Counted from the stretch's first letter, positions 2,124-64,000 are shown. The stretch is 64,000 nucleotides of DNA from an uncultured Bdellovibrionales bacterium (GCA_964488025.1 CAZATJ010000002.1:13840-77839); one strand, 5' to 3'. Translations and numbers: made by a program. Notes: generated by a model from the letters alone, not told the origin.

Positions 2124-4322
2124 ATGGAATTTCTGGAACAACAAACGAAAGGGTTTTTTTCTTTTTGGAAATGGGAAATCGGCGGAGTGCTGCTTCTTGG
2201 TTTTGTCGTTGTCATGAACCTTTTCCCGAACGGGTATGTCATCATGGGTGGCGATGTCATGCAGAATATCCATTTGAACGAGAATTATAGCAATCTTTTT
2301 TACGAATGGTTCGGGCGCGTTTCGTTTTTTTATCTCCCGTTTTATCTTTTGGATGTGATGGGCGTTTCCGCAACGGCGCAGCTTTCGTGGTATCTCGGCA
2401 TTTTTTTGGTATCGGCATACGTTTCTTTTTTTGTTTTCGGCCGGCTTTTGTTCTCATATGTCCGGGGAGCGCTTCTGGCTTTCGGTAGTCTTTTCTATGC
2501 CACCAATATCTATACGCTGTATATATTCACTTCGACCTGGGGATTTACGTATTATCAGATACTGTATGTTTTCATTCCGGTACTTACCGGTCTGTATATA
2601 CGATCACTGCAGAGTCGGTCGAGGATTTTCTCTCTCGCATTTCTTCTGGTGGTTTTCTTCGCATCGATGAGTTTCAGCAATCCGGCATTCGCTGTTTCTC
2701 TGGGGATGTATTTTATTCTGTTGACTGCCTTTTTATTTATTTTCCGTTTTGTCGTATGGGATAAGCGAGTACTCGGGAAAATAGCTCTTCTCGGTACTCT
2801 GAGCATCGCACTCAATGCATACTGGATGCTACCGGTACTGCCGCAGATGCGTGCCGGGATCGAGGGTGTCGGATCATCGACTGATATCAATTTGCCTGAA
2901 TCGCTGAGGAAGACTTCGAATGCTATTTTCGATACGCTCCGTCTGGTATCGACGTATGAACACGATATGTTTTATCCCTATAATTTTCCCTATCCGCAAA
3001 TCGAATGGCTGCAAAATCCGATTCTTGCGCTCACGTTCGCTCCTTTCTTTCTGATCCTTATTGGGTTTATGTTCATCAAGAAAAATGAGAATGTTCTGCG
3101 TTCTTGGTATCTGGTCTTTTTTGCGCTTCTGGCTGTTTTCACTGCTCTTGTAGCGCACGTCCGATATCCGTTCGATGTATTCAATAATTTTTTCTTCCAG
3201 CTTCCTGGATTCAACGTATTGCGCGGATGGGATAAGATGGCGATATTTACGCCGTTTCTCATCGTAACGCTTTTTTTCATTATGCTTGTTTCTCAGCAAG
3301 GGAAGAAATATTATCGATATCTTCTGGGGAGTTCTTTCGTGCTTGTTGTTTTGCTGGCATTGCCTTTTTATTTCGGTGGCATTCAGACGAAGATGAGCTA
3401 TATCCTGCAGGGGAATGATGAGAAAGACTATCGCGAGTCGCGCTACAGCGCCTTGGTCAAGATACCGGAACCGTACTATGATATCCAGGAAATTTTGAAA
3501 AAGGATACGGCAGATAACAAGATTTCGACGTTGCCTTTTTCGCCCGGATCGAGCGTGGGGCGCGTCGATCTTCCGAAATGGAAAGTCAATGCGCCGCACG
3601 TGATACCGTTTTTGTATCAGAAGAGCTATGTTGAACCGAACCAGCCGTATATCGGCGACCTGCGGTTTGCCAAAGAATATAGCGATATCCACCTGAATCC
3701 GGAAACGATTATCGACGTCTACGGGCTTTTGGGTGTGAAATATATCGTTTACCAGAAAGATGCTGATTCGGAAAGAGTGCAGAAATTTGGGCGCGCGCGG
3801 GCATTTCTCGAAGAAAAATCGGCGATACAGATGATTGCCGATAGCGAATGGATATCGCTGTATACGGTTGATGACAGCCGCGTGTTTCCTTATATGTATG
3901 TCAGCGATGAAGCATTTTCTTTTGATTCGGATCAGGAAAATATGTCTAGTGGAATACGGGCGTTTCAGGAAACCGTTTCACCGGTATCTTACGAACGGAA
4001 AAATCCGAAAGAGATTGTTATTCAGGTGACGACGGATATTTCCAGGAATTCCTTGGTGTATCTCAATGAAAAATATGATACTCTCTGGCAAGCAGTATAT
4101 GTATCCAAAGATGGTAAGAGAGTTTCTCTTGCAAGAGAGGATACTGTCAATTTCGCAAATGCGTGGAAAACTGATTATGTCGCGGCTGGAGGGAAAATAG
4201 AGATATCGCATCGGTCATTCCGGCTTCTGCGTGTGGGGCTTATGATTTCTGGTATAGTGCTTCTGGCTGTCATCTCTTTTTTGATGTATCGTATATTTAC
4301 AAGAAAATATGGAAAAAACTGA
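2124..4322 (+). CDS. large polytopic GT-C-like membrane protein (YfhO-like candidate lipid-linked sugar transferase)
   Basis: 732 aa with more than 10 predicted TM helices in the N-terminal two thirds, a soluble C-terminal domain and a final C-terminal TM helix. It is adjacent to GtrA-like and GtrB-like genes, the architecture of three-component glycosylation systems. Confidence 0.45.
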   Translation: MEFLEQQTKGFFSFWKWEIGGVLLLGFVVVMNLFPNGYVIMGGDVMQNIHLNENYSNLFYEWFGRVSFFYLPFYLLDVMGVSATAQLSWYLGIFLVSAYVSFFVFGRLLFSYVRGALLAFGSLFYATNIYTLYIFTSTWGFTYYQILYVFIPVLTGLYIRSLQSRSRIFSLAFLLVVFFASMSFSNPAFAVSLGMYFILLTAFLFIFRFVVWDKRVLGKIALLGTLSIALNAYWMLPVLPQMRAGIEGVGSSTDINLPESLRKTSNAIFDTLRLVSTYEHDMFYPYNFPYPQIEWLQNPILALTFAPFFLILIGFMFIKKNENVLRSWYLVFFALLAVFTALVAHVRYPFDVFNNFFFQLPGFNVLRGWDKMAIFTPFLIVTLFFIMLVSQQGKKYYRYLLGSSFVLVVLLALPFYFGGIQTKMSYILQGNDEKDYRESRYSALVKIPEPYYDIQEILKKDTADNKISTLPFSPGSSVGRVDLPKWKVNAPHVIPFLYQKSYVEPNQPYIGDLRFAKEYSDIHLNPETIIDVYGLLGVKYIVYQKDADSERVQKFGRARAFLEEKSAIQMIADSEWISLYTVDDSRVFPYMYVSDEAFSFDSDQENMSSGIRAFQETVSPVSYERKNPKEIVIQVTTDISRNSLVYLNEKYDTLWQAVYVSKDGKRVSLAREDTVNFANAWKTDYVAAGGKIEISHRSFRLLRVGLMISGIVLLAVISFLMYRIFTRKYGKN

Positions 4323-10505: not shown

Positions 10506-10964
10506 CTAGACGGGAACGATGACGTTCACACCTTGGCGGAAGGGACGGATGTTGTTGTCTCGACACAAGATGACGTGGGTCATCCCCGGGTGTTTGCCCT
10601 GGGCAATCTCGTCAAAGAGTGTCCACTTGTCCCCGCCACCCGGTTCGTAGTCATCCCGTTGCACACTTTCGTGCTTGGCGAAGAGACGGATTCCATCTTC
10701 GAGAGTGAACAGTTCGCCACCGCAGAAGTGCGTGGGCGATTCGTTGACGGGGTCACTCTTGAGGCCGACCATCTTCTGGGTCTCATGGTCCATCACCTGG
10801 GCCACGTACTGGGTGTAGAACCGGAAGGACCAGGCCTTCTCGGGGATCTTCAGATCCTCGGTCGAGCGGTCAGTCGTCAGTCGGTCCCGGTTGTGGCTTT
10901 CGAGATTGCCGTAGAAACGGACATACGTCAACTTTTCGTAGTCGGTCATGTTTGCAAGCATGGT
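10506..10964 (-). CDS. hypothetical protein (GC-rich island)
   Basis: The start at 10964 is chosen because AAGGAG lies 7 nt upstream. The track ORF extends to 11024 without an RBS. No family recognised. Confidence 0.5.
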   Translation of the reverse strand, partial: TMLANMTDYEKLTYVRFYGNLESHNRDRLTTDRSTEDLKIPEKAWSFRFYTQYVAQVMDHETQKMVGLKSDPVNESPTHFCGGELFTLEDGIRLFAKHESVQRDDYEPGGGDKWTLFDEIAQGKHPGMTHVILCRDNNIRPFRQGVNVIVPV

Positions 10965-12063: not shown

Positions 12064-13917
12064 TTACTTTGCTATCTTCACTACCTTTACGAAGTTTTCG
12101 GGACGGTTATCGATAAGGAGTTGCCAGGCAGGATGGGACTCGGTATAGGCGGCTGACATCTGCAGATTTTTTTGTTTCTGCCACCGGCTGTGTTCCGGCC
12201 GATAGAGGTTGCGTCCTCGATGGGAGAGCACGGCGTAGTCAAACGGTTGTCCCGCGGCCGCTTCGTATTCCATGGTGACACATTTCCCTTTGAAGAATTC
12301 GCAGATGCCATAATAGTCGCTCCAGACAAGAAGATTTTGAGCATCGGGTAAGGAATTGAGATATTGAGCCGCTTCGTATCCGCCGTAGCCCCAGGAATGG
12401 TGGATGATTTTTTCTTGAGGGAGCAGGAAGTTCGTGTAGTTGAAATAAAATGGAGCGGCACAGGCGGTACTGGTTATGAGTATGAGAATAGTTCCCAGGA
12501 GGAGCCATTTTTGGAATACTTGGGAAAAACCCGCGAGAGCCGAAGCGGCGAGAATAGCGATAATCGGATAGAGGAGTATGAGGTAGCGCGCCGTCGCGAG
12601 GATTTCCGAGAGAAGTATGGCGATGAGGAAAAAGAAAATAAATAAGAGAAGAGAAAAATTTTCGAAATGCCCGGTGGCGATTTCTTCCTGATTTTGAATC
12701 TTACGTGGGAGGATATTGGAGAGGAGTTGGCCAAGAAAAAGAATAAGAGTCAGGGGAGCGATGGAAAAGACCAGCGGGTTCAATTCGAGGAAGATGGCTT
12801 GGATGATGTTCGGAAAATAGGTTTTATCCGGCTTGTCGCTGCTGTAGAGGTCTTTCAGGTCAAACGGAATCTTCGAAAAAATTTCCCATTCCGGGAAGAG
12901 TATTCTTCCGACGATGAGGGTGATAAAGAGTGTAAGGAGTAAACCGGAGACTATTTTTTCGAGTAACGAGAACGCCTGTATCCTTTCTGTGAATTTCAAG
13001 ATGGTGCCAATGATTTTTTCCTTACAGAAAACGACCCCGAGAGAAAATAAAAGAAAAACAGCGAGCGGAAGAAAAGAGAAATAGGCCTCTCCGCCGGAGA
13101 GGAGATCCCCCAGTATGGAAGGGTTAAGCCAGAGAGCGGGAAGAAAAAGAGTCATAATCAGCATTCCGATTACTATGACAGACAGGAGGAAAATGATATT
13201 TTCTTTCGCCATCTTTCTGATGGTTTCCGGTGTTTGATCCTTTTGGAAAAAAAGATTGGCTATGATAAGAAAGGTAAAGAATGGCAGGAGAAAACTCCCG
13301 ATGTACTTTGAAAGAATTGCAAAACCGAGCAGGGCGCCGGAGAGAAAAATAAATTTTTTCTCACGAAACTTCAAAAGGGCGAGAAACGAAAGGAGGGTAG
13401 CTGTTCCGAATGACCAGAGGAGCGAGTCCGGATTCACGATTTGCGTCATCCCGATGAGAATGGGTGAGAGTGTAATAAAAGAGGTCGCCAAGAGGGCGGT
13501 TCTCGCATCGTACAGTTTTGAAAGAATCCAGAAAATATACAAGAGGAGTAAGGTATTGGCTATCAGCAGGGGTAATCTGAATGCCACGAGTGTTTTTTCA
13601 GATCTTATGACATCGCACTGAACGATTTCGGAATCACTTTTCTTACAGAGAGTTTCTGGGTGAGAATCAGAAAGAAGTCCGATGCCGGAAATGAGCGCGA
13701 GAGAAATACCCGGCTTATCATTGATGAGGGTTTTTTTCCATTTGCCGTCGGCGATGGCATCCCAATACTGTGGAATGCGCTCATAGACCCAGTAGTGTTC
13801 GTCCGCGGTGATGAATTTTCCGAGATGCTGGATACCGAAAAAGAAATGCAAAGAAAGAATGATGACAATCAAAATATGCGAATGATATTTTTTCAAAAAA
13901 CTTGTCATAGAAATCAA
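12064..13917 (-). CDS. PMT_2/ArnT-like GT-C family membrane glycosyltransferase (paralog 1)
   Basis: 617 aa, polytopic. First extracytoplasmic loop carries the FITADEHYW DE-motif characteristic of GT39/GT83. Confidence 0.7.
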   Translation of the reverse strand: MISMTSFLKKYHSHILIVIILSLHFFFGIQHLGKFITADEHYWVYERIPQYWDAIADGKWKKTLINDKPGISLALISGIGLLSDSHPETLCKKSDSEIVQCDVIRSEKTLVAFRLPLLIANTLLLLYIFWILSKLYDARTALLATSFITLSPILIGMTQIVNPDSLLWSFGTATLLSFLALLKFREKKFIFLSGALLGFAILSKYIGSFLLPFFTFLIIANLFFQKDQTPETIRKMAKENIIFLLSVIVIGMLIMTLFLPALWLNPSILGDLLSGGEAYFSFLPLAVFLLFSLGVVFCKEKIIGTILKFTERIQAFSLLEKIVSGLLLTLFITLIVGRILFPEWEIFSKIPFDLKDLYSSDKPDKTYFPNIIQAIFLELNPLVFSIAPLTLILFLGQLLSNILPRKIQNQEEIATGHFENFSLLLFIFFFLIAILLSEILATARYLILLYPIIAILAASALAGFSQVFQKWLLLGTILILITSTACAAPFYFNYTNFLLPQEKIIHHSWGYGGYEAAQYLNSLPDAQNLLVWSDYYGICEFFKGKCVTMEYEAAAGQPFDYAVLSHRGRNLYRPEHSRWQKQKNLQMSAAYTESHPAWQLLIDNRPENFVKVVKIAK

Positions 13918-13922
13918 TGACG

Positions 13923-16193
13923 CTATGGTTTGAAACGGAATATTTTCACGTAGTGCGAGGGACGGTCGTTGATGTCGATTTCAAAGACGGGATTGGTGCG
14001 GTCGTAATAGGAAGCGAAATGAATGAGACCGGGTTTCTGTGACAATACGTCGCTTGCGAACATGTTGGTGGTGCGGTTCTTACGCGCCGCCGAAACCACA
14101 ATATAGTCGAGGCCCTCATCGCGGAGTGAGAGGTAGTTGCGGTTGCTGCTCTTGCAGTGGCCGACAAAGAATTTGCAGACGCCATCCTTGTCTGTCCAGA
14201 TGAGCATGTTTTCCGCATCCGGAAGACGGTTAAGGTACATGGCGGCCTCGTAGCTGCCGGGACCCATATCTTTCACGTCGGTATGATACTTGGCGGGAAG
14301 AAAGGAGCTGGCATAGGAGAGGGGGAAGGGAGTTATGATGAGCGAAAAAACACCGAGGATAATGATAATTGATCCAATCATGACCGGCGTAGGGGTATGG
14401 GCAATTTTCAGCCTGCGATGAGCATAGACCAGGAGGTGTTCGAGCGTGATGCCGGCGATGATGGCAGCGAGCGGGAAAAGGATAATTTGGTAGCGGACGA
14501 TAGCGGCGACGTTGTTGACGGTGGTGCCAAGGAAGTAGAGGAGGATGAAGATGATGAAGTAGAAGGAAGTTCGTAGGGCGACGGATTCGGAAAAATGTTT
14601 TTTAAAGAAAAAGAACGGTGTGATAAAGAGGAGGAGGAAAATAAGTGGGGTGACTCCGAAGATGAAGGGGTAGAAGTTGGTCAGGAAGACGCCGAGAAAA
14701 TCACTCCGATTCGCAATGGTTTTCGGAGAGGCGAGCAGCTCTTGGAATGGATAGACGCTCATTCCGGACCAGGTGTTCCAGACGACGAAAAGTATGGTAG
14801 CAAGGAAAAAGAGACCGATGAGTGTGGCGAGTTTATCACGAAAGGTCGTAAGGAGAGTAAGGAGAGCAGAGGTAATGCGTGCTTTGCCGAGCCATTGGTC
14901 GAGAAGAATGAAAGCGATGAGGATAAGAAAGAGCGGCGCCACTTTTTCAAAGGCCTGACTGAGAAGGGTGGAGGTCAAAAGTTTTTCGGGTTTGACCCAG
15001 GTGGCGGGGAAGAAGACGTAGAAAGTGGTCAGGGCGACAAACGTCAGTACCAAGAGGTCAGAGAGGGATTGTTTCAGATGAATGGCGAAGGAACGGATTG
15101 CTGATTTCTCCTGGTAGATGTATTCCAAGAAAATCAAACCGAGGAAAAAGACAAAAAGAATATTGGCTACATACTTAGTGAGCAGGGCGAGACCGAGCAA
15201 TATGCCGGCGAAGACCAGGTAACGGAAAGAACGGCGTCTCAAGAAAACGAGGTAGGAAATAAGGGAAAGCGGGGTGAAGACCCACAAGAGGGAATCAGGA
15301 TTGATAATTTTAGCCATACCGATGAGTACCGGAGAAAGAGCGATGAAGATGTAGCTCGGTAAGGCATTTCGTCTTCCTATCAGGCGCTCGAGGAGGAAAT
15401 AGAAGAGTGGCAGCATGAGGGTGATGGCGAGGAGGAGCGGAAAGCGGAAGGAAAAATAGAAACTTTCTATTTTGGAAGTGGTGCCGATTTCTTCCGGCAG
15501 GTATCTCATCTTATCGAAGCGTTTGGGATCAAAGGAAAAAAGGCCCGGCCAGGTAGTGAGCGCTACGGTGATACCGGGTTTGTCGCTGATGCGAGTGCCC
15601 TTCCAGTCGTGTTCGGCGATATTGTTCCAATATTTTCCGATACGTCCTTCGTACCAGAGAGCTTCGTCGACGGCGGCGAAGCGGGTGAGGTGGTACAATC
15701 CGAAAAGAAAAAAGAGGGCGGTCACGGTAGCGACCAGAATGAGACTGGGGAGACCCTGAGACTGAATCCATGCTTTGGGGCTCTGCGCTTTGGGATCAGC
15801 TAATCGAAGGGCCTGCTCTTTTTTCATATAACGGGAAGAGAGGAGTACTCCGGTCAGGATGACGTAGGCACCGAGAGCGATAGGGAAAATATAATGAAAG
15901 TTCTTGGACTCTATGAGGCCGTAGGTCATGATAAGGGCTCCCGGGAAGGTGACAAGGAGGAGAGTGGTGAGAAATCTTTGCCAGTCGATCTGAGAAGCAA
16001 AGTAGAGGATGCCTCCAAAAATGAGTACTCCAAAAATAAGGAAAGCGGCATAAAAAAATTGGTTATCAAGATTGGAGTCAAACAGGGCGAGCGACGTGCT
16101 TTGTGGGGCGATAAAGAGGAGCGTGGCGATGGCGAGCGCGACAGAGAGAGCGGCATAGACCTTATTTTCAAGACTCTGGAAAAAATCGTGCAT
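13923..16193 (-). CDS. PMT_2/ArnT-like GT-C family membrane glycosyltransferase (paralog 2)
   Basis: 756 aa, polytopic. AAVDEALWYEGRIGKYW loop parallel to paralog 1. Confidence 0.7.
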   Translation of the reverse strand: MHDFFQSLENKVYAALSVALAIATLLFIAPQSTSLALFDSNLDNQFFYAAFLIFGVLIFGGILYFASQIDWQRFLTTLLLVTFPGALIMTYGLIESKNFHYIFPIALGAYVILTGVLLSSRYMKKEQALRLADPKAQSPKAWIQSQGLPSLILVATVTALFFLFGLYHLTRFAAVDEALWYEGRIGKYWNNIAEHDWKGTRISDKPGITVALTTWPGLFSFDPKRFDKMRYLPEEIGTTSKIESFYFSFRFPLLLAITLMLPLFYFLLERLIGRRNALPSYIFIALSPVLIGMAKIINPDSLLWVFTPLSLISYLVFLRRRSFRYLVFAGILLGLALLTKYVANILFVFFLGLIFLEYIYQEKSAIRSFAIHLKQSLSDLLVLTFVALTTFYVFFPATWVKPEKLLTSTLLSQAFEKVAPLFLILIAFILLDQWLGKARITSALLTLLTTFRDKLATLIGLFFLATILFVVWNTWSGMSVYPFQELLASPKTIANRSDFLGVFLTNFYPFIFGVTPLIFLLLFITPFFFFKKHFSESVALRTSFYFIIFILLYFLGTTVNNVAAIVRYQIILFPLAAIIAGITLEHLLVYAHRRLKIAHTPTPVMIGSIIIILGVFSLIITPFPLSYASSFLPAKYHTDVKDMGPGSYEAAMYLNRLPDAENMLIWTDKDGVCKFFVGHCKSSNRNYLSLRDEGLDYIVVSAARKNRTTNMFASDVLSQKPGLIHFASYYDRTNPVFEIDINDRPSHYVKIFRFKP

Positions 16194-57957: not shown

Positions 57958-59115
57958 ATGCGCATCTCTTATTCCAGTGTCGGGACGTACCAGACATGTC
58001 CGCTCAAGTATAAATATCAGCACGTTGACCGTATTCCGGAACCAAAATCCAAGGAGGCGGTATTTGGGACGCTCATTCATGCGGTCATGAAGTATATCCA
58101 CACCCCGAGCCTTCTCTCCCCTTCTGTTGATCAAGCGCTCGACTATTTCGCTAAGGGCTGGAACAGTGAAGTGTACGAGGACGAGATGGAAGAGCGCGCC
58201 GCTTTCTCGCAGGGCGTGACCATCATCCAGAATTACCTGGCGCGCAACAAACCCAATGATTTCACTATCGTCGACCTGGAAAGTCGCTTCGCGATCGAAA
58301 TCGGTGATGAGGAGCATGGCAAGCACATCGTCTCTGGTATTATCGACCGAATTGACAAGACAGCCGATGGTTATGAGATTATTGATTACAAGACGACCCG
58401 CAAAATGCCGTCGCAGGACAAAGTCGATAATGATCTCCAGCTTTCCATTTATCTCAAGGCATTTCTCGCTCGCTATCCCAAGGAAGTTGAGCATCTCGAT
58501 AAGATCACGGTCAGTCTCTACTACCTGAAGCATGGCGTGAAACTTTCAAGCGCGCGCACCTTGGAGCAGTTGGAGCGGGTCGATCAGACCTTTCTCGACG
58601 TCATCAAATCGATTGAAGAGGCAAAATTCGAACCCATCCTCTCGCCACTGTGCGATTGGTGCGGGTATCAGAAAATTTGCCCTCTGTGGAAGCATAAATT
58701 TACCGAGACTCACCGGCTCGAAACCGAAGAGGTTAAGACTGCCATCAGCGAATATCTCGATCTGAAAGGTAAGATGAGCGAAGAAAAACAGCACTTGGGA
58801 AAATTGCAGGCACTGATTCTCGAGTATATGGAGCAGGAGGGCGTGGACCGGGTCTTTGACGAACAGGGCATCATCGGAAAGTCGCTTCGCAAGACCTACA
58901 AATACGATGAAGAAAAATTACGAGCTATCCTGGAACCGCTTGATAAGTGGGAATCGATTTTGAAAGTAGACGGCATCGCGCTTCGCACCATCCTCGCTAC
59001 TCTCCCCTCCTCCCTTCAGGAATCGGCTGAAAAAGCGAAAATGCTCGACAAAGAAAGCGTCAGCCTTTCGGTCAAGAAAAACAAAATCGAAGTGGATGAT
59101 GACTTGTCACTTTAA
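57958..59115 (+). CDS. PD-(D/E)XK nuclease superfamily protein, Cas4/RecB-like with Cys4 cluster
   Basis: N-terminal YQTCPLKY Cys, IVDLE / IDRID / EIIDYKT nuclease motifs, C-terminal CDWCGYQKICP (three Cys). Confidence 0.65.
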   Translation: MRISYSSVGTYQTCPLKYKYQHVDRIPEPKSKEAVFGTLIHAVMKYIHTPSLLSPSVDQALDYFAKGWNSEVYEDEMEERAAFSQGVTIIQNYLARNKPNDFTIVDLESRFAIEIGDEEHGKHIVSGIIDRIDKTADGYEIIDYKTTRKMPSQDKVDNDLQLSIYLKAFLARYPKEVEHLDKITVSLYYLKHGVKLSSARTLEQLERVDQTFLDVIKSIEEAKFEPILSPLCDWCGYQKICPLWKHKFTETHRLETEEVKTAISEYLDLKGKMSEEKQHLGKLQALILEYMEQEGVDRVFDEQGIIGKSLRKTYKYDEEKLRAILEPLDKWESILKVDGIALRTILATLPSSLQESAEKAKMLDKESVSLSVKKNKIEVDDDLSL

Positions 59116-59127
59116 CGCACGGAAAGA

Positions 59128-59589
59128 TCAGCGATCGAGTTCGGAACTGTCTGGACAAGGGGCAAATGCGCATGTGGGACCGGTTCTGCCGACAAAGCTA
59201 CCGTCGGGGCAAAGCTTCACCTCTTGGGTGCAGAGTACTTTCTTGTTCGTTTTTTCAACCAGCGCCTCTTTCTGCGTAGGCTTGGTAGGAACTTTTTCTA
59301 TCGGTACTTCAAATGGTTCTTCGGTAATGCCTGGCCTATTAGGAAGATTATCGTGAGGACAAGGAGCAAACGCGCACTGCGGACCGGTTCGTGTCACCGC
59401 GCTCCCGTCGGGACATATTCTGGCTTCTTGTGTACAGGCCCTCATTCCTTGTCCCAAGGAAAAATCTTTGGAGTAAACGGAAAAAAAAGCAATCAGAAGT
59501 GAGAAAAAAACAACGAGCGCCGCAACAAGAGCGGTATCGGGGTGGAGAGGATATTTTTGCATAACGTTTTCTTTTTCTTCAGTATACAC
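59128..59589 (-). CDS. secreted Cys-rich protein with two 27-aa repeats (C-x5-CPDGS-x-V-x-RTGP-x-CAFAPCP)
   Basis: N-terminal TM/signal. Repeats CTQEARICPDGSAVTRTGPQCAFAPCP and CTQEVKLCPDGSFVGRTGPTCAFAPCP. Confidence 0.5.
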   Translation of the reverse strand: MYTEEKENVMQKYPLHPDTALVAALVVFFSLLIAFFSVYSKDFSLGQGMRACTQEARICPDGSAVTRTGPQCAFAPCPHDNLPNRPGITEEPFEVPIEKVPTKPTQKEALVEKTNKKVLCTQEVKLCPDGSFVGRTGPTCAFAPCPDSSELDR

Positions 59590-59618
59590 CCTACCCGAAG
59601 GGCTGTAAATTTTTAACG

Positions 59619-59645
59619 GCTGAGGACATGGGACGAAGTTGGAAC
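59619..59645. repeat. 27-bp array repeat, copy A (GCTGAGGACATGGGACGAAGTTGGAAC)
   Basis: Matches the consensus GCTGAGGCTCTGGGACGAAGTTGGAAC at 24 of 27 positions. Confidence 0.75.
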
Positions 59646-59650
59646 TTTTA

Positions 59651-60193
59651 TTACCTCAGGTTTTTGAAGCAATTCAACCAAGTTGGCCACCAAGGAATTG
59701 AAACAAAAGCAATTATTAAGCTTGTTAAGCTTGTGATGATGAGAATATGTTTTTTTATGTATTCTAATGTTTTATTAGAAGTCTTGTTTTGAATATTTCT
59801 TCCCTCTTCTTTTTGAATACTATTGATTTTTAGGTTTTCAAGCGTTATTGAGTGCCCACTAATTTCTTTGATTTTTCCTGATATCTTAATTTTTGTTTTT
59901 TGGTGTAATGTTTTTAATTCAGGGTTTTCTTCCAGACTGATCGAGCCATAGATGGAAGGGTAAACACCATTGAGATCAACCATAGTCACCCAAAAGAGTT
60001 CATCTTCAGGAGAGGGGTCTTTGTCATACGGAAAGGAGGGATGGTTTTCTTTATATGGATTATACAAACTTCGAAAGAGAACTGTCCATTCACATTGAAG
60101 ACCAATATATCCTTTTTCAGCTTCCTTTTGGAGATATACTGGCATTTTAGAGACAGCATTGATAATCTCAATTGGGTTGGGTTTTATATTCAT
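59651..60193 (-). CDS. hypothetical protein with C-terminal TM helix
   Basis: 180-aa ORF at low GC. No family. Confidence 0.4.
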   Translation of the reverse strand: MNIKPNPIEIINAVSKMPVYLQKEAEKGYIGLQCEWTVLFRSLYNPYKENHPSFPYDKDPSPEDELFWVTMVDLNGVYPSIYGSISLEENPELKTLHQKTKIKISGKIKEISGHSITLENLKINSIQKEEGRNIQNKTSNKTLEYIKKHILIITSLTSLIIAFVSIPWWPTWLNCFKNLR

Positions 60194-60453
60194 AAAAAAA
60201 TACGGCGAAAATATTATGTGCTGGGAAAGAAGGGAGGTCTCGCTGCTCTCCGCCGGTTGGCGGATGCGCTCTATAGGGCTTCCCTGCCCGAAGTGCTACA
60301 TCGTTGCAGGCGGGCGCCCTCTAGCCCGGCAAAGCCGGTCACCTCAAACGGACAAACGGGTGTTTTCCCGACCCCTCTTCTCGTTCGATCCCTTTACCTC
60401 TACAGAATAAAAGAAAATCACCATACCCACAAGGGGCATAGCGATTTTTCTTA

Positions 60454-60480
60454 GCTGAGGCTCTGGGACGAAGTTGGAAC
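60454..60480. repeat. 27-bp array repeat, copy B (consensus)
   Basis: gctgaggctctgggacgaagttggaac. Confidence 0.8.
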
Positions 60481-60503
60481 GTATTTACGGAATCAAGCGG
60501 TTT

Positions 60504-61544
60504 TTAAAAGTTGATGATTACATCCTTATTCTTTGTGTTTATTTGAACGGGCATGCCGTAGGGTATGGGAATTTGTGGGTCCGTATGGCCAAAATCTAAA
60601 TTTTGTACAATGGGTGCGGTCTTATTATACTGCCGTATGATTTGTAGAGTAGTTTCTCTTTGTCTTTTTCGATATTCTTCTTTTTCTTCGCTACTTTTTT
60701 GATTATCGAATTCCCATGCCTTGGGCCGCCCAACAAGAAAACCCTTGATCCTTTCTAAGATCCCCCGTTCCCCCATGGCTCTATAAATACGCCTAACATA
60801 ATCCGGCGAAGGTATTTCCTCAGATGTTTCCGTTAGTAAAATGATATTTTCAAAATCTTCAAGTGACGGCATAGGAATAGCATGGCGGAGCAATTCATCA
60901 ATTGATTCAAGGCAACCTCCCCAAGTTACGCCCTCTGCATTTTGGTTACCATCCCAAAACCAACCAGCATTGGGCTCGTAGGACTTATTCTTTCTCAGGT
61001 TTTCTGGGTCATCCCAACTTAAACCTTGATCGCAGTATGCATCGCTGGCTTGAATCTTTACTTCACCTTGCTGAAAGAGTGCGAGTTCTAAATACTTGGC
61101 CGTATATTTGTTTATTTTTCCTGACTCGGCAAACTGGGTAAAGAGTGCCCCTCCGTAGTAGGAGGGAATTCCATTGAGCCACAGGAAATTCATAAAGTGA
61201 GTATTATCACTATACCCGAAAAACGGCTTTGGATTGTCTATGAATGGCTTCGAGGGAAGATCTTTTATATATGTTACTTGGTCGTCACCACCCAGAGAAG
61301 AGATGATTGCTTGTATGTTCTTATCTTCAAATGCAGCTATCAAGTCTTGAGCCCTCTCATTTTTAGAGGCACCTATCTTTTTTGTTGTTGGAAATTCTAC
61401 AGGCTCTAATTGAAAATTTTCTCTCAGTCTTTTTAGTCCAAGTTCGTAAACATGAGGCCATTTTCCGGGAGCAGCAAATGATGGCGACAAAATGGCAACC
61501 TTGTCACCTCCTGTTAACTTTTTAAGTTGAGTGAAATTTTGCAT
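60504..61544 (-). CDS. S66 family LD-carboxypeptidase (LdcA/MccF-like)
   Basis: GDKVAILSPS, GYSDNT (Ser nucleophile), FGHTD (His). 346 aa. Confidence 0.75.
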   Translation of the reverse strand: MQNFTQLKKLTGGDKVAILSPSFAAPGKWPHVYELGLKRLRENFQLEPVEFPTTKKIGASKNERAQDLIAAFEDKNIQAIISSLGGDDQVTYIKDLPSKPFIDNPKPFFGYSDNTHFMNFLWLNGIPSYYGGALFTQFAESGKINKYTAKYLELALFQQGEVKIQASDAYCDQGLSWDDPENLRKNKSYEPNAGWFWDGNQNAEGVTWGGCLESIDELLRHAIPMPSLEDFENIILLTETSEEIPSPDYVRRIYRAMGERGILERIKGFLVGRPKAWEFDNQKSSEEKEEYRKRQRETTLQIIRQYNKTAPIVQNLDFGHTDPQIPIPYGMPVQINTKNKDVIINF

Positions 61545-61554
61545 AAAACTATGT

Positions 61555-61581
61555 GCTGGGGCTGTGGGACGCTGTTGGAAC
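61555..61581. repeat. 27-bp array repeat, copy C (gctggggctgtgggacgctgttggaac)
   Basis: 23 of 27 match to the consensus. Confidence 0.7.
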
Positions 61582-61595
61582 TTATTTGTCTTATT

Positions 61596-61874
61596 CTAAA
61601 GCTTTATAGTTGCTATAATCTTTTCAAAAATATCCACGTTATCTTGGTTATCACCAGGGTAAGAGGCTACAATTGTATTAAATCCATTACTTATCAATGT
61701 GTCAACCCACAACTCTCCCGCATACGCTCCCCTATAGGATGTTTGTGTGGCTACAAGATTACCAACTTTTACTGTTTTTTGAGTGAAATTTTCATGGTTA
61801 TCTGTCTTTTGCTTATTGGTAATACTGCTAATATCTTCTTGTTTTGAATAGATTATGAGTTGGTTCATTATCAT
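61596..61874 (-). CDS. hypothetical small protein
   Basis: 92-aa ORF. Confidence 0.35.
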   Translation of the reverse strand: MIMNQLIIYSKQEDISSITNKQKTDNHENFTQKTVKVGNLVATQTSYRGAYAGELWVDTLISNGFNTIVASYPGDNQDNVDIFEKIIATIKL

Positions 61875-61955
61875 TGCGTCTGGGATACCATTAGGACTAA
61901 TTGTATACAGTCCTAAGATGATATCTTGGCAAGAAGAAATAGCTCCGGGGGTATT

Positions 61956-62759
61956 TTAGTCTAATCCCACTTTTCTTTTTTTCCAATGTTCAATGTTACT
62001 GCTAACCTTAATAATTTTAGGTAGTTTGTTATCATTTATTAGCGATGAGTCTAGGACAGGAACCGGAAGAAATTTGAAACTATTGAGCACAGCTTCAACT
62101 TGTTTTCTCTCCGTTTTATTTATAGTGCCTTTATACGAGATGCTATCTTCATAGTAATTACACTGAGAAAGATCAATTTCTTGATCCTTACGTGTGCAAA
62201 TAGTTTGTTTATTGAACACCATATTGCTTCCGAAGAGAAACCCTGACTCATTCCATACACCGCTAGGATAATTTTCAAAATTCGTTATAGTGGCCCATGT
62301 TGATCTGTTTATAAGAGGATAATCAAAAGAAGCCCTTATTTTTTCAGAAAACTTTACGGTTGAAGGTAATGTTACTCCAGGAATGCCTTCTGTTGATATG
62401 CCCTGGGGAGCAATAAGTACAAATGTCCCCTGGGTAAAGTGGCTAGCCCCATTGGCGTTATCAAAAGGATTGTCAGGGCTATTCTTATAGAAAATGATTA
62501 CCGGGTCGGAACCCCTATCAAATTCTTTGTATGTCCAACCATTTGGAAGGACTACTTGAAAATAATATTTTGTATTTGTATATATGTTATTTTCAAAACG
62601 ACTTATAACTTCTTTTTTTGAAGTTTCGGCGGGCGTTATTGTTAAATTTACATGGTCCTTTTTAGGAGTTGATATTTGTAGAGAAAAAAGAGCAACTATT
62701 GTTGCTAAGATTAAAATTATAAAAATGGCTAAAGATGAATTTATTTTTCTGTAAAACAT
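61956..62759 (-). CDS. hypothetical secreted protein (signal anchor)
   Basis: 267 aa, N-terminal LAIFIILILATIVALFSL helix. Confidence 0.4.
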   Translation of the reverse strand: MFYRKINSSLAIFIILILATIVALFSLQISTPKKDHVNLTITPAETSKKEVISRFENNIYTNTKYYFQVVLPNGWTYKEFDRGSDPVIIFYKNSPDNPFDNANGASHFTQGTFVLIAPQGISTEGIPGVTLPSTVKFSEKIRASFDYPLINRSTWATITNFENYPSGVWNESGFLFGSNMVFNKQTICTRKDQEIDLSQCNYYEDSISYKGTINKTERKQVEAVLNSFKFLPVPVLDSSLINDNKLPKIIKVSSNIEHWKKRKVGLD

Positions 62760-62811
62760 ATTTTTTTATATCATAACACAAAAGCACCATTTTAGGTGCT
62801 TAAAAGTCTTA

Positions 62812-62838
62812 GCTGAGGCTCTGGGACGATGTTGGAAC
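62812..62838. repeat. 27-bp array repeat, copy D (gctgaggctctgggacgatgttggaac)
   Basis: 26 of 27 match. Confidence 0.8.
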
Positions 62839-62871
62839 CTATTTATTGCAAGAATTACCCTAATTAAAGCC

Positions 62872-63654
62872 TTATTCTGTAAATTTGTCTATCCAATTGA
62901 GAAATAGGCTTCTTATCTCCCCTAAATGTTCCTTTTCTCTGAAGGTATGTGGTGCGTTTTTGATAACATGAAACTCTTTTTCTCCTGGCAAAGCATTAAA
63001 CAGGATCCCTACTTGGTCTGGTGGAGTAGCAGTGTCATTCTCCCCAACAATGAGGAGGACGGGCATGGTAAGTTTTGAAGCCTTTGGAAGCAAATCGTAT
63101 TGTAATCTATCGATAATATGTGTCCACGGGAGTCTTTTGATAACCCCTGGTCTGGAAACGCTTTGCTCTTCTTTCCATCCTGTCTTCTCCCATCTCATGA
63201 AGTCATCTGGCTTAAAACGTTTGTGAGCCTCAACGCTCAGTTGACCAGATACAACAGGAGAAATCGGCGCGAGCGCTAAAACTTTTTCAGGATATCTTTC
63301 TGCAAAGAGTGCTGTGCAGATACCGCCTAAACTATGACCAGAAAGGGCAAAGAGCTCTTGATACCACACCTGATCTTTCGCCCAAGAAATCACATCCTCC
63401 AGATCCTCGTAGTAGTTCGTAATAGTGGCATCTTCGTATTTTCCGTCACTCTCACCGAAGGTATTGGTTGTATCAAAGCGTACAACAGTAAATCCTCGTT
63501 CCTGGAAGGCGTTTGCAATAGTGATAATATGATTTTGTTCCTTGAAACCACCAAGTCCGTGCATGACAAAGGCCAATCCGTTCTGATTCTCAGTTTGTTC
63601 AACAATCACAGAAACATTCTGTTCTTTGCGATTTTTGATAAAAAGTTTTTGCAT
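62872..63654 (-). CDS. alpha/beta hydrolase
   Basis: HGLGG oxyanion region and GHSLGG nucleophile elbow. 260 aa. Confidence 0.75.
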   Translation of the reverse strand: MQKLFIKNRKEQNVSVIVEQTENQNGLAFVMHGLGGFKEQNHIITIANAFQERGFTVVRFDTTNTFGESDGKYEDATITNYYEDLEDVISWAKDQVWYQELFALSGHSLGGICTALFAERYPEKVLALAPISPVVSGQLSVEAHKRFKPDDFMRWEKTGWKEEQSVSRPGVIKRLPWTHIIDRLQYDLLPKASKLTMPVLLIVGENDTATPPDQVGILFNALPGEKEFHVIKNAPHTFREKEHLGEIRSLFLNWIDKFTE

Positions 63655-63664
63655 AGATTTTCGT

Positions 63665-63737
63665 GCTGAGGCTCTGGGATTTATCCGCCTCGGGAGGACG
63701 AAGCCCGCCTGAACGATTCATTCGGGCAAGTTGGAAC
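63665..63737. repeat. array repeat, copy E, long form with about 48-bp internal insertion
   Basis: gctgaggctctggga + tttatccgcctcgggaggacgaagcccgcctgaacgattcattcgggca + agttggaac. The insert contains a GCCCG...CGGGC hairpin. Confidence 0.7.
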
Positions 63738-64000
63738 CTATTTTAAGTCCATTAACCAGATTTGACCCTTTTCTCCGTCTGGAGCGATTGCTACCCCAAC
63801 CCTCCTAAATTCGGAGTTGTCATGAAACCCCCAAGAGTCTTGGTGGGTGACTCCACTGAAAAACACCGCTTCTTGGTATCCTTCTTTTTTTGCCTCATCA
63901 ACTTGTAAGTTTCGTAACGCAGTCCCAATTCCTTTTCCTTGATATTTCGCTGCTACCACGTAGAATTCGATGACCTTGTCGGTTTTTGTATACTGCTTCA
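63738..64000 (-). CDS. GNAT family N-acetyltransferase, C-terminal part (N-terminus beyond window end)
   Basis: QGKGIGTAL acetyl-CoA binding motif A. The ORF is open to the window edge. Confidence 0.6.
   Translation of the reverse strand, partial: KQYTKTDKVIEFYVVAAKYQGKGIGTALRNLQVDEAKKEGYQEAVFFSGVTHQDSWGFHDNSEFRRVGVAIAPDGEKGQIWLMDLK

Follow-up and report, generated by a model that had tools for sequence, protein, structure and literature searches.

What joins the unrelated genes at the end of this stretch of DNA, and why does the same short repeat stand between them? The window, that is, the whole stretch of 64,000 nucleotides analysed here (GCA_964488025.1 CAZATJ010000002.1:13840-77839, deposited as an uncultured Bdellovibrionales bacterium), ends in a row of seven minus-strand genes whose gaps contain copies of a 27-nt repeat, hereafter named M. 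Nearly all the named records that bear this repeat belong to the Patescibacteria. In this phylum genomes are tiny, few mobile elements have been recognised and the lifestyle is epibiotic, so that the way in which its members acquire and shuffle accessory genes is an open question. Comparison of the window with related sequences suggests that the copies of M are probably recombination junctions (attR-type) of serially accreted elements that target tRNA genes.

Repeat copies in the window

The consensus of M is GTTCCAAC-nn-CGTCCCA-n3-CCCCAGC and, in the orientation of the genes, the form present in the window is GTTCCAAC-TT-CGTCCCA-GAG-CCTCAGC. A degenerate-pattern search of the 64 kb located GCTGRGGNNNTGGGACNNNGTTGGAAC on the plus strand at 59619, 60454, 61555 and 62812, with a chance expectation of 0 in 100 shuffles, and no further copy was found by this search in the remaining 59 kb. 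With the addition of a 73-nt variant at 63665-63737, which also carries the conserved 3' piece GTTGGAACnTATTT, the window contains four 27-nt copies and one long variant, all in a single orientation. The pattern searches thus bore out the five copies listed in the initial annotation, the last of them a long variant. All these copies are located in the gaps separating the seven minus-strand open reading frames (ORFs), as had also been described. The sharp compositional contrast claimed for this region turned out to be real in direction and modest in size, the GC content of the array being 0.34-0.44 against mostly 0.43-0.53 in other parts of the window.

On the minus strand, the regular copies are copy h (59619..59645, sense GTTCCAACTTCGTCCCATGTCCTCAGC), copy g (60454..60480, the exact consensus for the lineage), copy f (61555..61581, GTTCCAACAGCGTCCCACAGCCCCAGC) and copy d (62812..62838, GTTCCAACATCGTCCCAGAGCCTCAGC). 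Terminator-like hairpins follow two of them, at 60414..60448 after copy g and at 62782..62801 after copy d (60448-60414 and 62801-62782 in the reading direction of the minus strand), which agrees with the two hairpin terminators predicted earlier. The remnant reported in the 61875-61955 junction is also present; direct reading placed it at 61875..61887 (minus strand, sense ATCCCAGACGCA), where the GTTCCAAC arm has been lost.

A sequence logo of 164 copies indicated that the motif reaches 6 nt further upstream, with an A at position -6 in 93% of the copies. The resulting element of about 33 nt is non-palindromic and no conservation was seen downstream of M. The long variant (63665..63737, minus strand) has the usual ends and two hairpin-forming inserts between GTTCCAACTT, TTCGTCC and TCCCAGAGCCTCAGC. 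Akin to it are medium variants in two other loci (L002 9378-9423 and L013 705-750). Medium and long variants have in common a conserved insert, TCCkCC-loop-GGCGGATAmA, between the arm and TCCCAG, while the second hairpin of the window variant follows GTTCCAACTT. The fixed positions of these inserts suggest that they are tolerated or functional expansions of the site.

Distribution and polarity of the arrays

The strict M pattern matched 94 stretches in a one-genome-per-species collection and at least 120 further stretches in metagenomes. Nearly all the 94 come from metagenome-assembled genomes (MAGs) of Patescibacteria, namely Paceibacterota, Moraniibacteriota and Nomura-, Kaiser-, Lloyd-, Nealson- and Jorgensenbacteria, and a single MAG may contain several arrays (e.g. 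loci L008, L031, L045 and L049 of H51-bin099). In the 212 loci analysed, 515 copies of M lie on the majority strand and 4 on the opposite one. The search in other genomes that had been proposed thus returned widespread co-oriented arrays at tRNA-Gln, not copies resembling repetitive extragenic palindromic (REP) elements at ordinary operon junctions. A phage origin of M was discarded, as viral contigs gave no match to the pattern.

Between the sites of the 212 loci lie 351 units, which are highly diverse and mostly single-gene. Among the first 129 units the median length is 549 nt, and mostly one ORF fills most of the unit; one locus (L134) has 10 sites within 9 kb. The cargo genes include those for hydrolases, acetyltransferases, NUDIX enzymes, an abortive-infection protein and a beta-lactamase-fold protein.

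Several contigs of this set (L010, L018, L047, L053, L056, L066, L077, L074) bear the label 'uncultured Bdellovibrionales' or 'Gammaproteobacteria', and 'Saccharibacteria' is the label of many more. They nevertheless have genes, the tRNA-Gln sequence and M arrays in common with loci of the Moraniibacteriota or Paceibacterota type, and the labels look unreliable.

Anchoring of the arrays at tRNA-Gln

ARAGORN detected 67 tRNA genes in the 212 loci, of which 52 are tRNA-Gln. Every one of these 52 is on the M strand, and 50 are upstream of all the M copies of their locus. Other loci open with a free 23-nt copy of the tRNA-Gln 3' end, GGTTCGATACCTAGTCTGCCAGC, which we call the T site; a full displaced tRNA fragment is found only in this form, at array starts. 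A tRNA-Gln-type end is present in 38 of the 59 loci having at least 3 kb upstream of the first M. When related genomes are compared, their homology breaks within about 3 nt of the tRNA 3' end, and the arrays beyond are unrelated. In some loci the T site is directly after, or overlaps, the stop codons of alaS and ychF, and the array starts there (L026 1685, L044 5267, L049 3861). In related genomes, the matching GACTGCCAGC forms the end of many M copies, which look like hybrids with the T site.

M and the tRNA end are in register over the last 16 nt (RTCC-N6-CCCAGC), although the match at the terminus covers no more than the last 5-7 nt. The 3' end of M corresponds to the acceptor 3' strand, G73 and C74 of the tRNA, and its upstream part is an arm of its own, GTTCYAAC-nn-C. 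In the window, copy g and its downstream hairpin align with the 3' end and terminator of the tRNA-Gln of another locus (L053). Since the hairpin, together with copy g, is homologous to the sequence right after an intact tRNA-Gln, it represents the native flank downstream of the tRNA, which is what would be expected if the array had been inserted between the tRNA and this flank. Copy g would be the junction at the distal end of the main array, where the native flank of tRNA-Gln begins.

The acceptor 3' strand of tRNA-Gln is also the left arm of a long inverted repeat, for instance TACCCCAGC-N40-GCTGGGGTA (L034, L048, L091, L085). The tRNA end can therefore pair with its downstream complement, and the inverted repeat might serve as a terminator or form, at the insertion point, an alternative structure of the DNA or RNA.

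Recombinase-bearing islands

No recombinase gene was found within the window. A contig reaching past 64 kb (L002) was obtained by exact-protein look-up with the window hydrolase. In this contig the array goes on with GNAT, NUDIX and HAD units, the last two being accompanied by one medium-length M, one half M (after HAD) and one degenerate M (GTTCCGAACGCATCCAATAAGCCCAGC). Next to them is an island encoding a 370-aa tyrosine recombinase, two excisionase-like helix-turn-helix (HTH_17) proteins, an N6/N4 methyltransferase and an SNF2-type helicase. The recombinase gene (L002 3506-4618) belongs to this separate island; it lies 4.7 kb beyond the edge of the window, and about 3.6 kb separate it from the first site. 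Both the additional repeat-gene units and the recombinase hidden beyond the edge, which the initial annotation had anticipated, were thus encountered. Against the integron-integrase model TIGR02249, the recombinase scored 17.5 bits, the cut-off being 265.

A test independent of M was provided by twelve loci from eight look-ups, which were fetched by homology to the L002 recombinase and not by the repeat. This recombinase family gave 2278 matches, the top 120 of which are 62-93% identical. The islands share a module made of a protein of about 437 aa, a 63-aa protein, an HTH_17 protein, the tyrosine recombinase, a second HTH_17 protein, restriction or defence genes that vary and, usually, a large serine recombinase. 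It adjoins the 3' end of a tRNA gene (Gln, Asn, His, Asp or Ser). For all of these five types but tRNA-Ser, an M-like site was present on the strand of the tRNA and 7-12 kb from it. The site has a conserved arm, and its last 4-7 nt are those of its own tRNA, namely CCCAGC or CGCAGC for Gln, CGCGC for Asp, ACCC for His and CGGAGC for Asn. In one case (L107), the tRNA-Asp island is followed by three such sites with NUDIX, beta-lactamase-fold and hydrolase genes. The association of a conserved arm with a matched tRNA terminus therefore gives M the composition of an attR junction, in which an element arm is joined to the terminus of the target. The attP sites reconstructed for the islands are inverted repeats, GTCCA-N16-TGGAC, with their centre at the tRNA end.

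The island tyrosine recombinases are 62-84% identical whichever the tRNA, in parallel with the near-invariance of the arm. Because of this parallel conservation, we favour the tyrosine recombinase as the protein that would read M. It is carried by the 7-12-kb islands together with the HTH_17 proteins, and the single-gene units of the arrays have no integrase.

The large serine recombinases co-resident in the islands are just 22-60% identical to one another, against a nearly invariant arm, and were disfavoured as arm-reading enzymes; they are possible determinants of island placement or insertion. In four islands the serine recombinase ORF runs antisense 13-105 nt into the tRNA gene (L101, ORF 12858-14420 and tRNA-Gln 14316-14390; L104, 2740-4233 and tRNA-Asn 4206-4278; L105, 14118-15617 and tRNA-His 15587-15658; L108, 9127-10776 and tRNA-Asp 10737-10811). 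The C-terminus of the enzyme therefore spans the junction between element and chromosome, and it would change on excision.

Restriction or defence modules that vary from island to island lie between the two recombinase genes (L002 1-3451, L101 11171-12855, L105 11368-14121, L109 1434-5919). In one type a MADS-like HTH protein accompanies an N6/N4 methyltransferase and an SNF2 helicase; the others pair a methyltransferase with BglII, Dcm with Vsr, and a helicase with a type III methyltransferase. The islands serve as vehicles for defence systems.

M as a feature of the DNA

Folding of the repeat, which had been suggested as a check, revealed no significant structure on either strand (z-scores of -1.1 for the sense and -0.03 for the antisense strand). 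Rfam 15, run on the whole window at gathering score, gave no match to M, and region 58800-64000 gave none at E<=10. Scans of the window and four related loci detected tRNAs only.

The longest ORF is antisense to M in 45 of the first 129 units (about 35%), including AT-rich units in which spurious ORFs are unlikely, and three of these antisense ORFs are backed by Pfam domains (AIPR, MaoC and DUF5680). Spacing is loose on both sides of the repeat: the upstream stop codon is 2 to about 140 nt away, and the downstream start codon or -10 box 2 to about 300 nt. Moreover, many cassettes have an extended -10 box (TGnTAnnnT) downstream of M that ends 6-8 nt before the ATG, with no Shine-Dalgarno sequence (e.g. 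L029 602, L031 4518, L009 1674, L036 5709, L083 1770 and L079 2052). Taken together, the loose spacing, the antisense ORFs and the promoters internal to the units indicate that the polarity of M belongs to the array and not to the transcripts of the genes. The position of the -10 boxes so near the ATG points to leaderless mRNAs as a potentially common mode of expression of these accessory genes.

Other explanations of M were considered and set aside. A promoter or leader function does not agree with a distance of 2-300 nt between M and the -10 box or ATG, nor with the many units that have their own promoter. An element linked to the stop codon was discarded in view of the variable stop-to-M distance, the A at position -6 being part of the motif itself. 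As for an attC-like or any other fold, none is significant, and hairpins occur only in the inserts of the long variant.

Turnover of units

Moranbacteria-type loci have the same flanking genes with entirely different units between them. The upstream flank ftsX-HD-tRNA-Gln is found in L010, L056 and L064, and a PD-(D/E)XK gene lies beyond the array in L010, L055, L092 and the window. Identical units recur in unrelated arrays, with their borders at M or T sites. At a finer scale, L134 differs from its close relative L221 by exactly one extra 756-nt unit and one extra M. Up to the last base of the 17-nt arm, L221 has the sequence of the left copy in L134; from the following base it has that of the right copy. 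The expected variation in gene content between repeats was thus seen both as a complete difference among syntenic relatives and as a single-unit difference between close strains. The switch in L221 fits strand exchange at the edge of the arm, where the crossover would then be placed. This was the only informative pair, since the crossover could not be fixed from the other shared cassettes, their pairs being too divergent or too few.

Proposed origin of the arrays

These features can be accommodated in the following model. M would combine a conserved arm from the element, A.A.AR-GTTCYAAC-nn-CGTCCCA, with the few terminal nucleotides of tRNA-Gln (acceptor 3' strand, G73 and C74: ...CCCAGC). A family of integrative elements of the Patescibacteria would insert at the extreme 3' end of tRNA genes, and each insertion would spare the tRNA and displace the earlier ones downstream, one junction marking each distal border. 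In the window, repeated insertion behind tRNA-Gln would have produced an integron-like stack of at least nine mostly single-gene units without a recombinase of their own. These units would presumably be moved in trans by the conserved tyrosine recombinase of larger islands, such as the one just past the window edge. The cassette array generated by site-specific recombination, as put forward initially, is supported by these data; that this recombinase acts on the site, and that single cassettes are mobile, is deduced from the comparative data.

Active mobilisation of single cassettes by the conserved tyrosine recombinase acting in trans, possibly with integration as circles, is plausible and put forward with some reserve. 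It is likewise only tentatively that we see here a phylum-wide and previously undescribed integron-like form of gene capture on tRNA ends, in which recombinase-less single-gene cassettes with an asymmetric arm and an exchangeable tRNA terminus would be inserted and excised in trans by the tyrosine recombinase of mobile islands. In such a gene-capture system, the recombinase may exchange only the strand next to one conserved arm, and the matching of termini would let one enzyme family land at tRNA-Gln, -Asp, -His and -Asn.

Several observations weigh against the junction model. The identity between M and the tRNA end is short (4-7 nt), and tRNA-Gln was not seen upstream of the window's own array, where the contig stretch ends first. 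An M-like site was not detected in the tRNA-Ser island (L110). The cassettes hold the left arm only and the inverted right arm TGGAC of the island attP is absent beside them; cassette sites are therefore not complete canonical sites. ORF clustering of 91 loci in search of a recurrent recombinase returned only housekeeping flanks (dnaX, ABC-F, alaS and a flavoprotein). Most arrays have no recombinase within their 8-kb locus, only L002 and L030 having one, and the protein from L030, the sole phmmer match to the L002 integrase in the ORFs of the first 91 loci, resembles the housekeeping Xer. Any recombinase action must therefore be in trans. The difference between L134 and L221 could equally have arisen by slippage or by homologous recombination (deletion) between the 17-nt direct repeats. 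As it fits both routes, gain or loss of a unit at M is proven and its mechanism is not. A crossover at the edge of the arm, as in this pair, would damage a real tRNA, so that events at tRNA genes and events within arrays may differ. Finally, the data on mobility consist of comparative presence and absence; excised circles or real-time empty sites were not observed.

The most serious competitor of the junction model is the view that the repeats are scars only: full-size islands would have integrated serially, each decaying to one cargo gene and its attR, and the units would be immobile, their differences in content arising by deletion between repeats and by occasional homologous exchange, e.g. 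after natural transformation. The match of M to the distal junction of recombinase-bearing islands would be accounted for in this way, as would the lack of the right core arm in the cassettes, the distance of the recombinase from most arrays, the L134/L221 difference, which is compatible with deletion between 17-nt direct repeats, and the existence of decayed sites (61875-61887 in the window, and the half site after HAD in L002). Decay alone is nevertheless difficult to reconcile with units as compact as these (median of 549 nt), mostly made of one ORF and in many cases provided with their own extended -10 promoter, or with the recurrence of units bordered by M or T sites in unrelated arrays. 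In addition, the ORFs of the first 91 loci contained no tyrosine-recombinase homologue save in L002 and L030, a search that did not cover pseudogenes or serine-recombinase remnants. Unlike neutral scars, the arm is near-identical across very divergent lineages. We therefore regard immobile scars as an unlikely explanation, though one to be taken into account.

Further down in probability is an element acting on RNA, either as a processing, termination or insulation signal in read-through of the highly transcribed tRNA-Gln or as a mimic for an RNase or the CCA-adding enzyme. In its favour, M always has the orientation of the tRNA and ends in a sequence that mimics the acceptor 3' strand, G73 and C74; moreover, a terminator hairpin often follows it, and it is C-rich and unstructured, like rut-like sites. 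Such a function would leave unexplained the homology blocks that start and end at M and the arm found at far island ends, 7-12 kb away, with Asp-, His- and Asn-matched termini; about one third of the units are transcribed in the opposite direction, and M has no covariation, fold or Rfam family. An RNA-level role thus appears improbable. A selfish short repeat of the REP type, or of the miniature inverted-repeat transposable element (MITE) type, spreading by itself into intergenic DNA, is very improbable. Although M is short and intergenic, and a genome may contain many copies of it and a MAG several arrays, it lacks terminal inverted repeats or a hairpin and has a strict polarity and a right end that co-varies with the adjacent tRNA. 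Far from being dispersed, its copies are clustered behind ends of the tRNA-Gln type, with none in the other 59 kb of the window. Least probable of all, and contradicted by the present data, is a classical integron or a cluster of attC sites lacking an integron integrase (CALIN), with attC sites used by IntI. The co-oriented sites, single-gene units and typical cargo (GNAT, NUDIX, hydrolases) recall such arrays, as does a nearby tyrosine recombinase divergent from the array. However, M has neither the R''/L''-L'/R' dyad nor a significant fold, the 17.5-bit score is far from the cut-off of 265, the recombinase is in a separate island and not beside attI, and the array starts at a tRNA end. Of the integron-like character initially ascribed to the locus, the co-oriented single-gene array is therefore retained, and IntI and folded attC sites are not; the proposal that the junctions are of a type other than attC holds.

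Comparison with known systems

Like integrons, the M arrays consist of co-oriented, diverse and mostly single-gene accessory units, each ending in a recombination site; growth from one fixed entry point and the many arrays without an adjacent recombinase are also features of integrons and CALINs. The site is here an asymmetric motif of 27-33 nt, whereas the attC of integrons is a folded imperfect palindrome. Entry takes place at a tRNA 3' end or its free copy, in place of an attI adjoining intI. The candidate recombinase does not resemble IntI, many units have their own promoter, and the longest ORF is reversed in about 35% of them.

Modules whose recombinase acts in trans include the CTX-type phages at dif, which are integrative mobile elements exploiting Xer recombination (IMEX), the pdif modules of Acinetobacter, cassettes at rlmH that resemble the staphylococcal cassette chromosome (SCC) without ccr, and cis-mobilizable elements (CIMEs). 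Like the M arrays, these are recombinase-less modules with short specific sites that accumulate in tandem at one chromosomal locus. As sites they have either dif-like dyads or the copied 3' end of a protein-coding gene. To our knowledge, none of them combines a tRNA end with an asymmetric arm, and none forms long single-gene arrays throughout a phylum. When M was compared with the dif, pdif and IMEX sites (about 28 bp, with two 11-bp inverted arms and a 6-8-bp spacer), inspection of the logo revealed no dyad symmetry of its arms, and the M sites are direct repeats that do not alternate.

The genomic islands inserted in tRNA genes by tyrosine integrases (Islander, PMC4383910) offer a closer parallel. 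Insertion is at the 3' end of a tRNA that remains intact, a few tRNA-derived nucleotides are found at the distal junction, successive insertions push the older ones outward, and the larger islands encode a tyrosine recombinase and excisionase-like HTH proteins. In contrast to those islands (PMC4383910), the junction is here mainly a conserved element arm with 5-7 tRNA nucleotides instead of a displaced piece of the tRNA, one conserved arm and one recombinase family go with at least four tRNAs, and the accreted units are single genes without a recombination module. The tycheposons of Prochlorococcus (bioRxiv 10.1101/2020.12.28.424599) also occur in streamlined genomes, as islands of flexible genes beside specific tRNAs, with repeated integration at one tRNA, older elements pushed further in and partial tRNA signatures across the island. 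Tycheposons, however, are several kb long and have their own integrase and replication modules, whereas most of the units described here measure about 0.5 kb and have no recombinase, and the arm between them is highly conserved and not of tRNA origin. The system behaves like an integron, and its chemistry is closest to that of tRNA-targeting islands and of tandem accretion as in the tycheposons. Searches of the literature on integrons, gene cassettes and genomic islands of Patescibacteria returned no description of it.

If the model is correct, a large share of the flexible genes of Patescibacteria would lie in arrays behind tRNA-Gln. As one 27-nt motif finds the arrays, it offers a simple handle for cataloguing this gene pool in metagenomes. 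The candidate pair of recombinase and site, with a target apparently set by a few exchangeable bases, would also be of interest to genome engineers and for the evolution of integron-like systems.

Genes and other features of the window

All seven ORFs of the array region are on the minus strand, and Pfam confirmed the three families previously assigned (S66, alpha/beta hydrolase and GNAT), finding none for the other four. The GNAT cassette is represented by the 3' part of its ORF (63738..64000), whose stop codon abuts the long M variant. It is followed by the alpha/beta hydrolase (62872..63654), a 267-aa protein with an N-terminal hydrophobic segment (61956..62759), a 92-aa protein (61596..61874), the S66 LD-carboxypeptidase (60504..61544) and a 180-aa protein of no known family (59651..60193).

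Between the last two ORFs, a GC-rich conserved structured element (60220..60401, minus strand) has a 3' end, CCCTTCTTTCCCAGC, that mimics the tRNA-Gln 3' end. Copies were found in L100 (two), L053 (two), L013 (two), L046 and L092, with a 32-nt partial copy in L066; homologues in M orientation are at L100 3193-3357 and 4069-4233, L053 7289-7448, L013 67-223 and 3191-3347, L046 5475-5616 and L092 170-319. The element is 140-185 nt long and has a closing helix around three main hairpins. Compensatory changes were seen in 14 of 37 pairs, compared with 5.7+/-1.6 in shuffles, none of 500 shuffles reaching 14, and 0-3 in slid controls. The element terminates in a copy of the tRNA-Gln T-arm and acceptor 3' strand. 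It is placed after tRNA-Gln or after an M site and terminator, and genes then follow as they do after M or T sites. No Rfam family matched the element, which may be an ncRNA (noncoding RNA) derived from tRNA-Gln or a structured landing site.

The last gene of the block (59128..59589, minus strand) encodes a Cys-rich, internally repetitive protein of 153 aa. No M site lies downstream of this gene, which is convergent with the PD-(D/E)XK nuclease gene and is probably part of the native flank or a terminal unit. The predicted protein has a hydrophobic segment at its N-terminus, followed by two Cys-rich modules of the form C-x-Q-E-x-K/R-x-CPDGS-x-V-x-RTGP-x-CAFAPCP.

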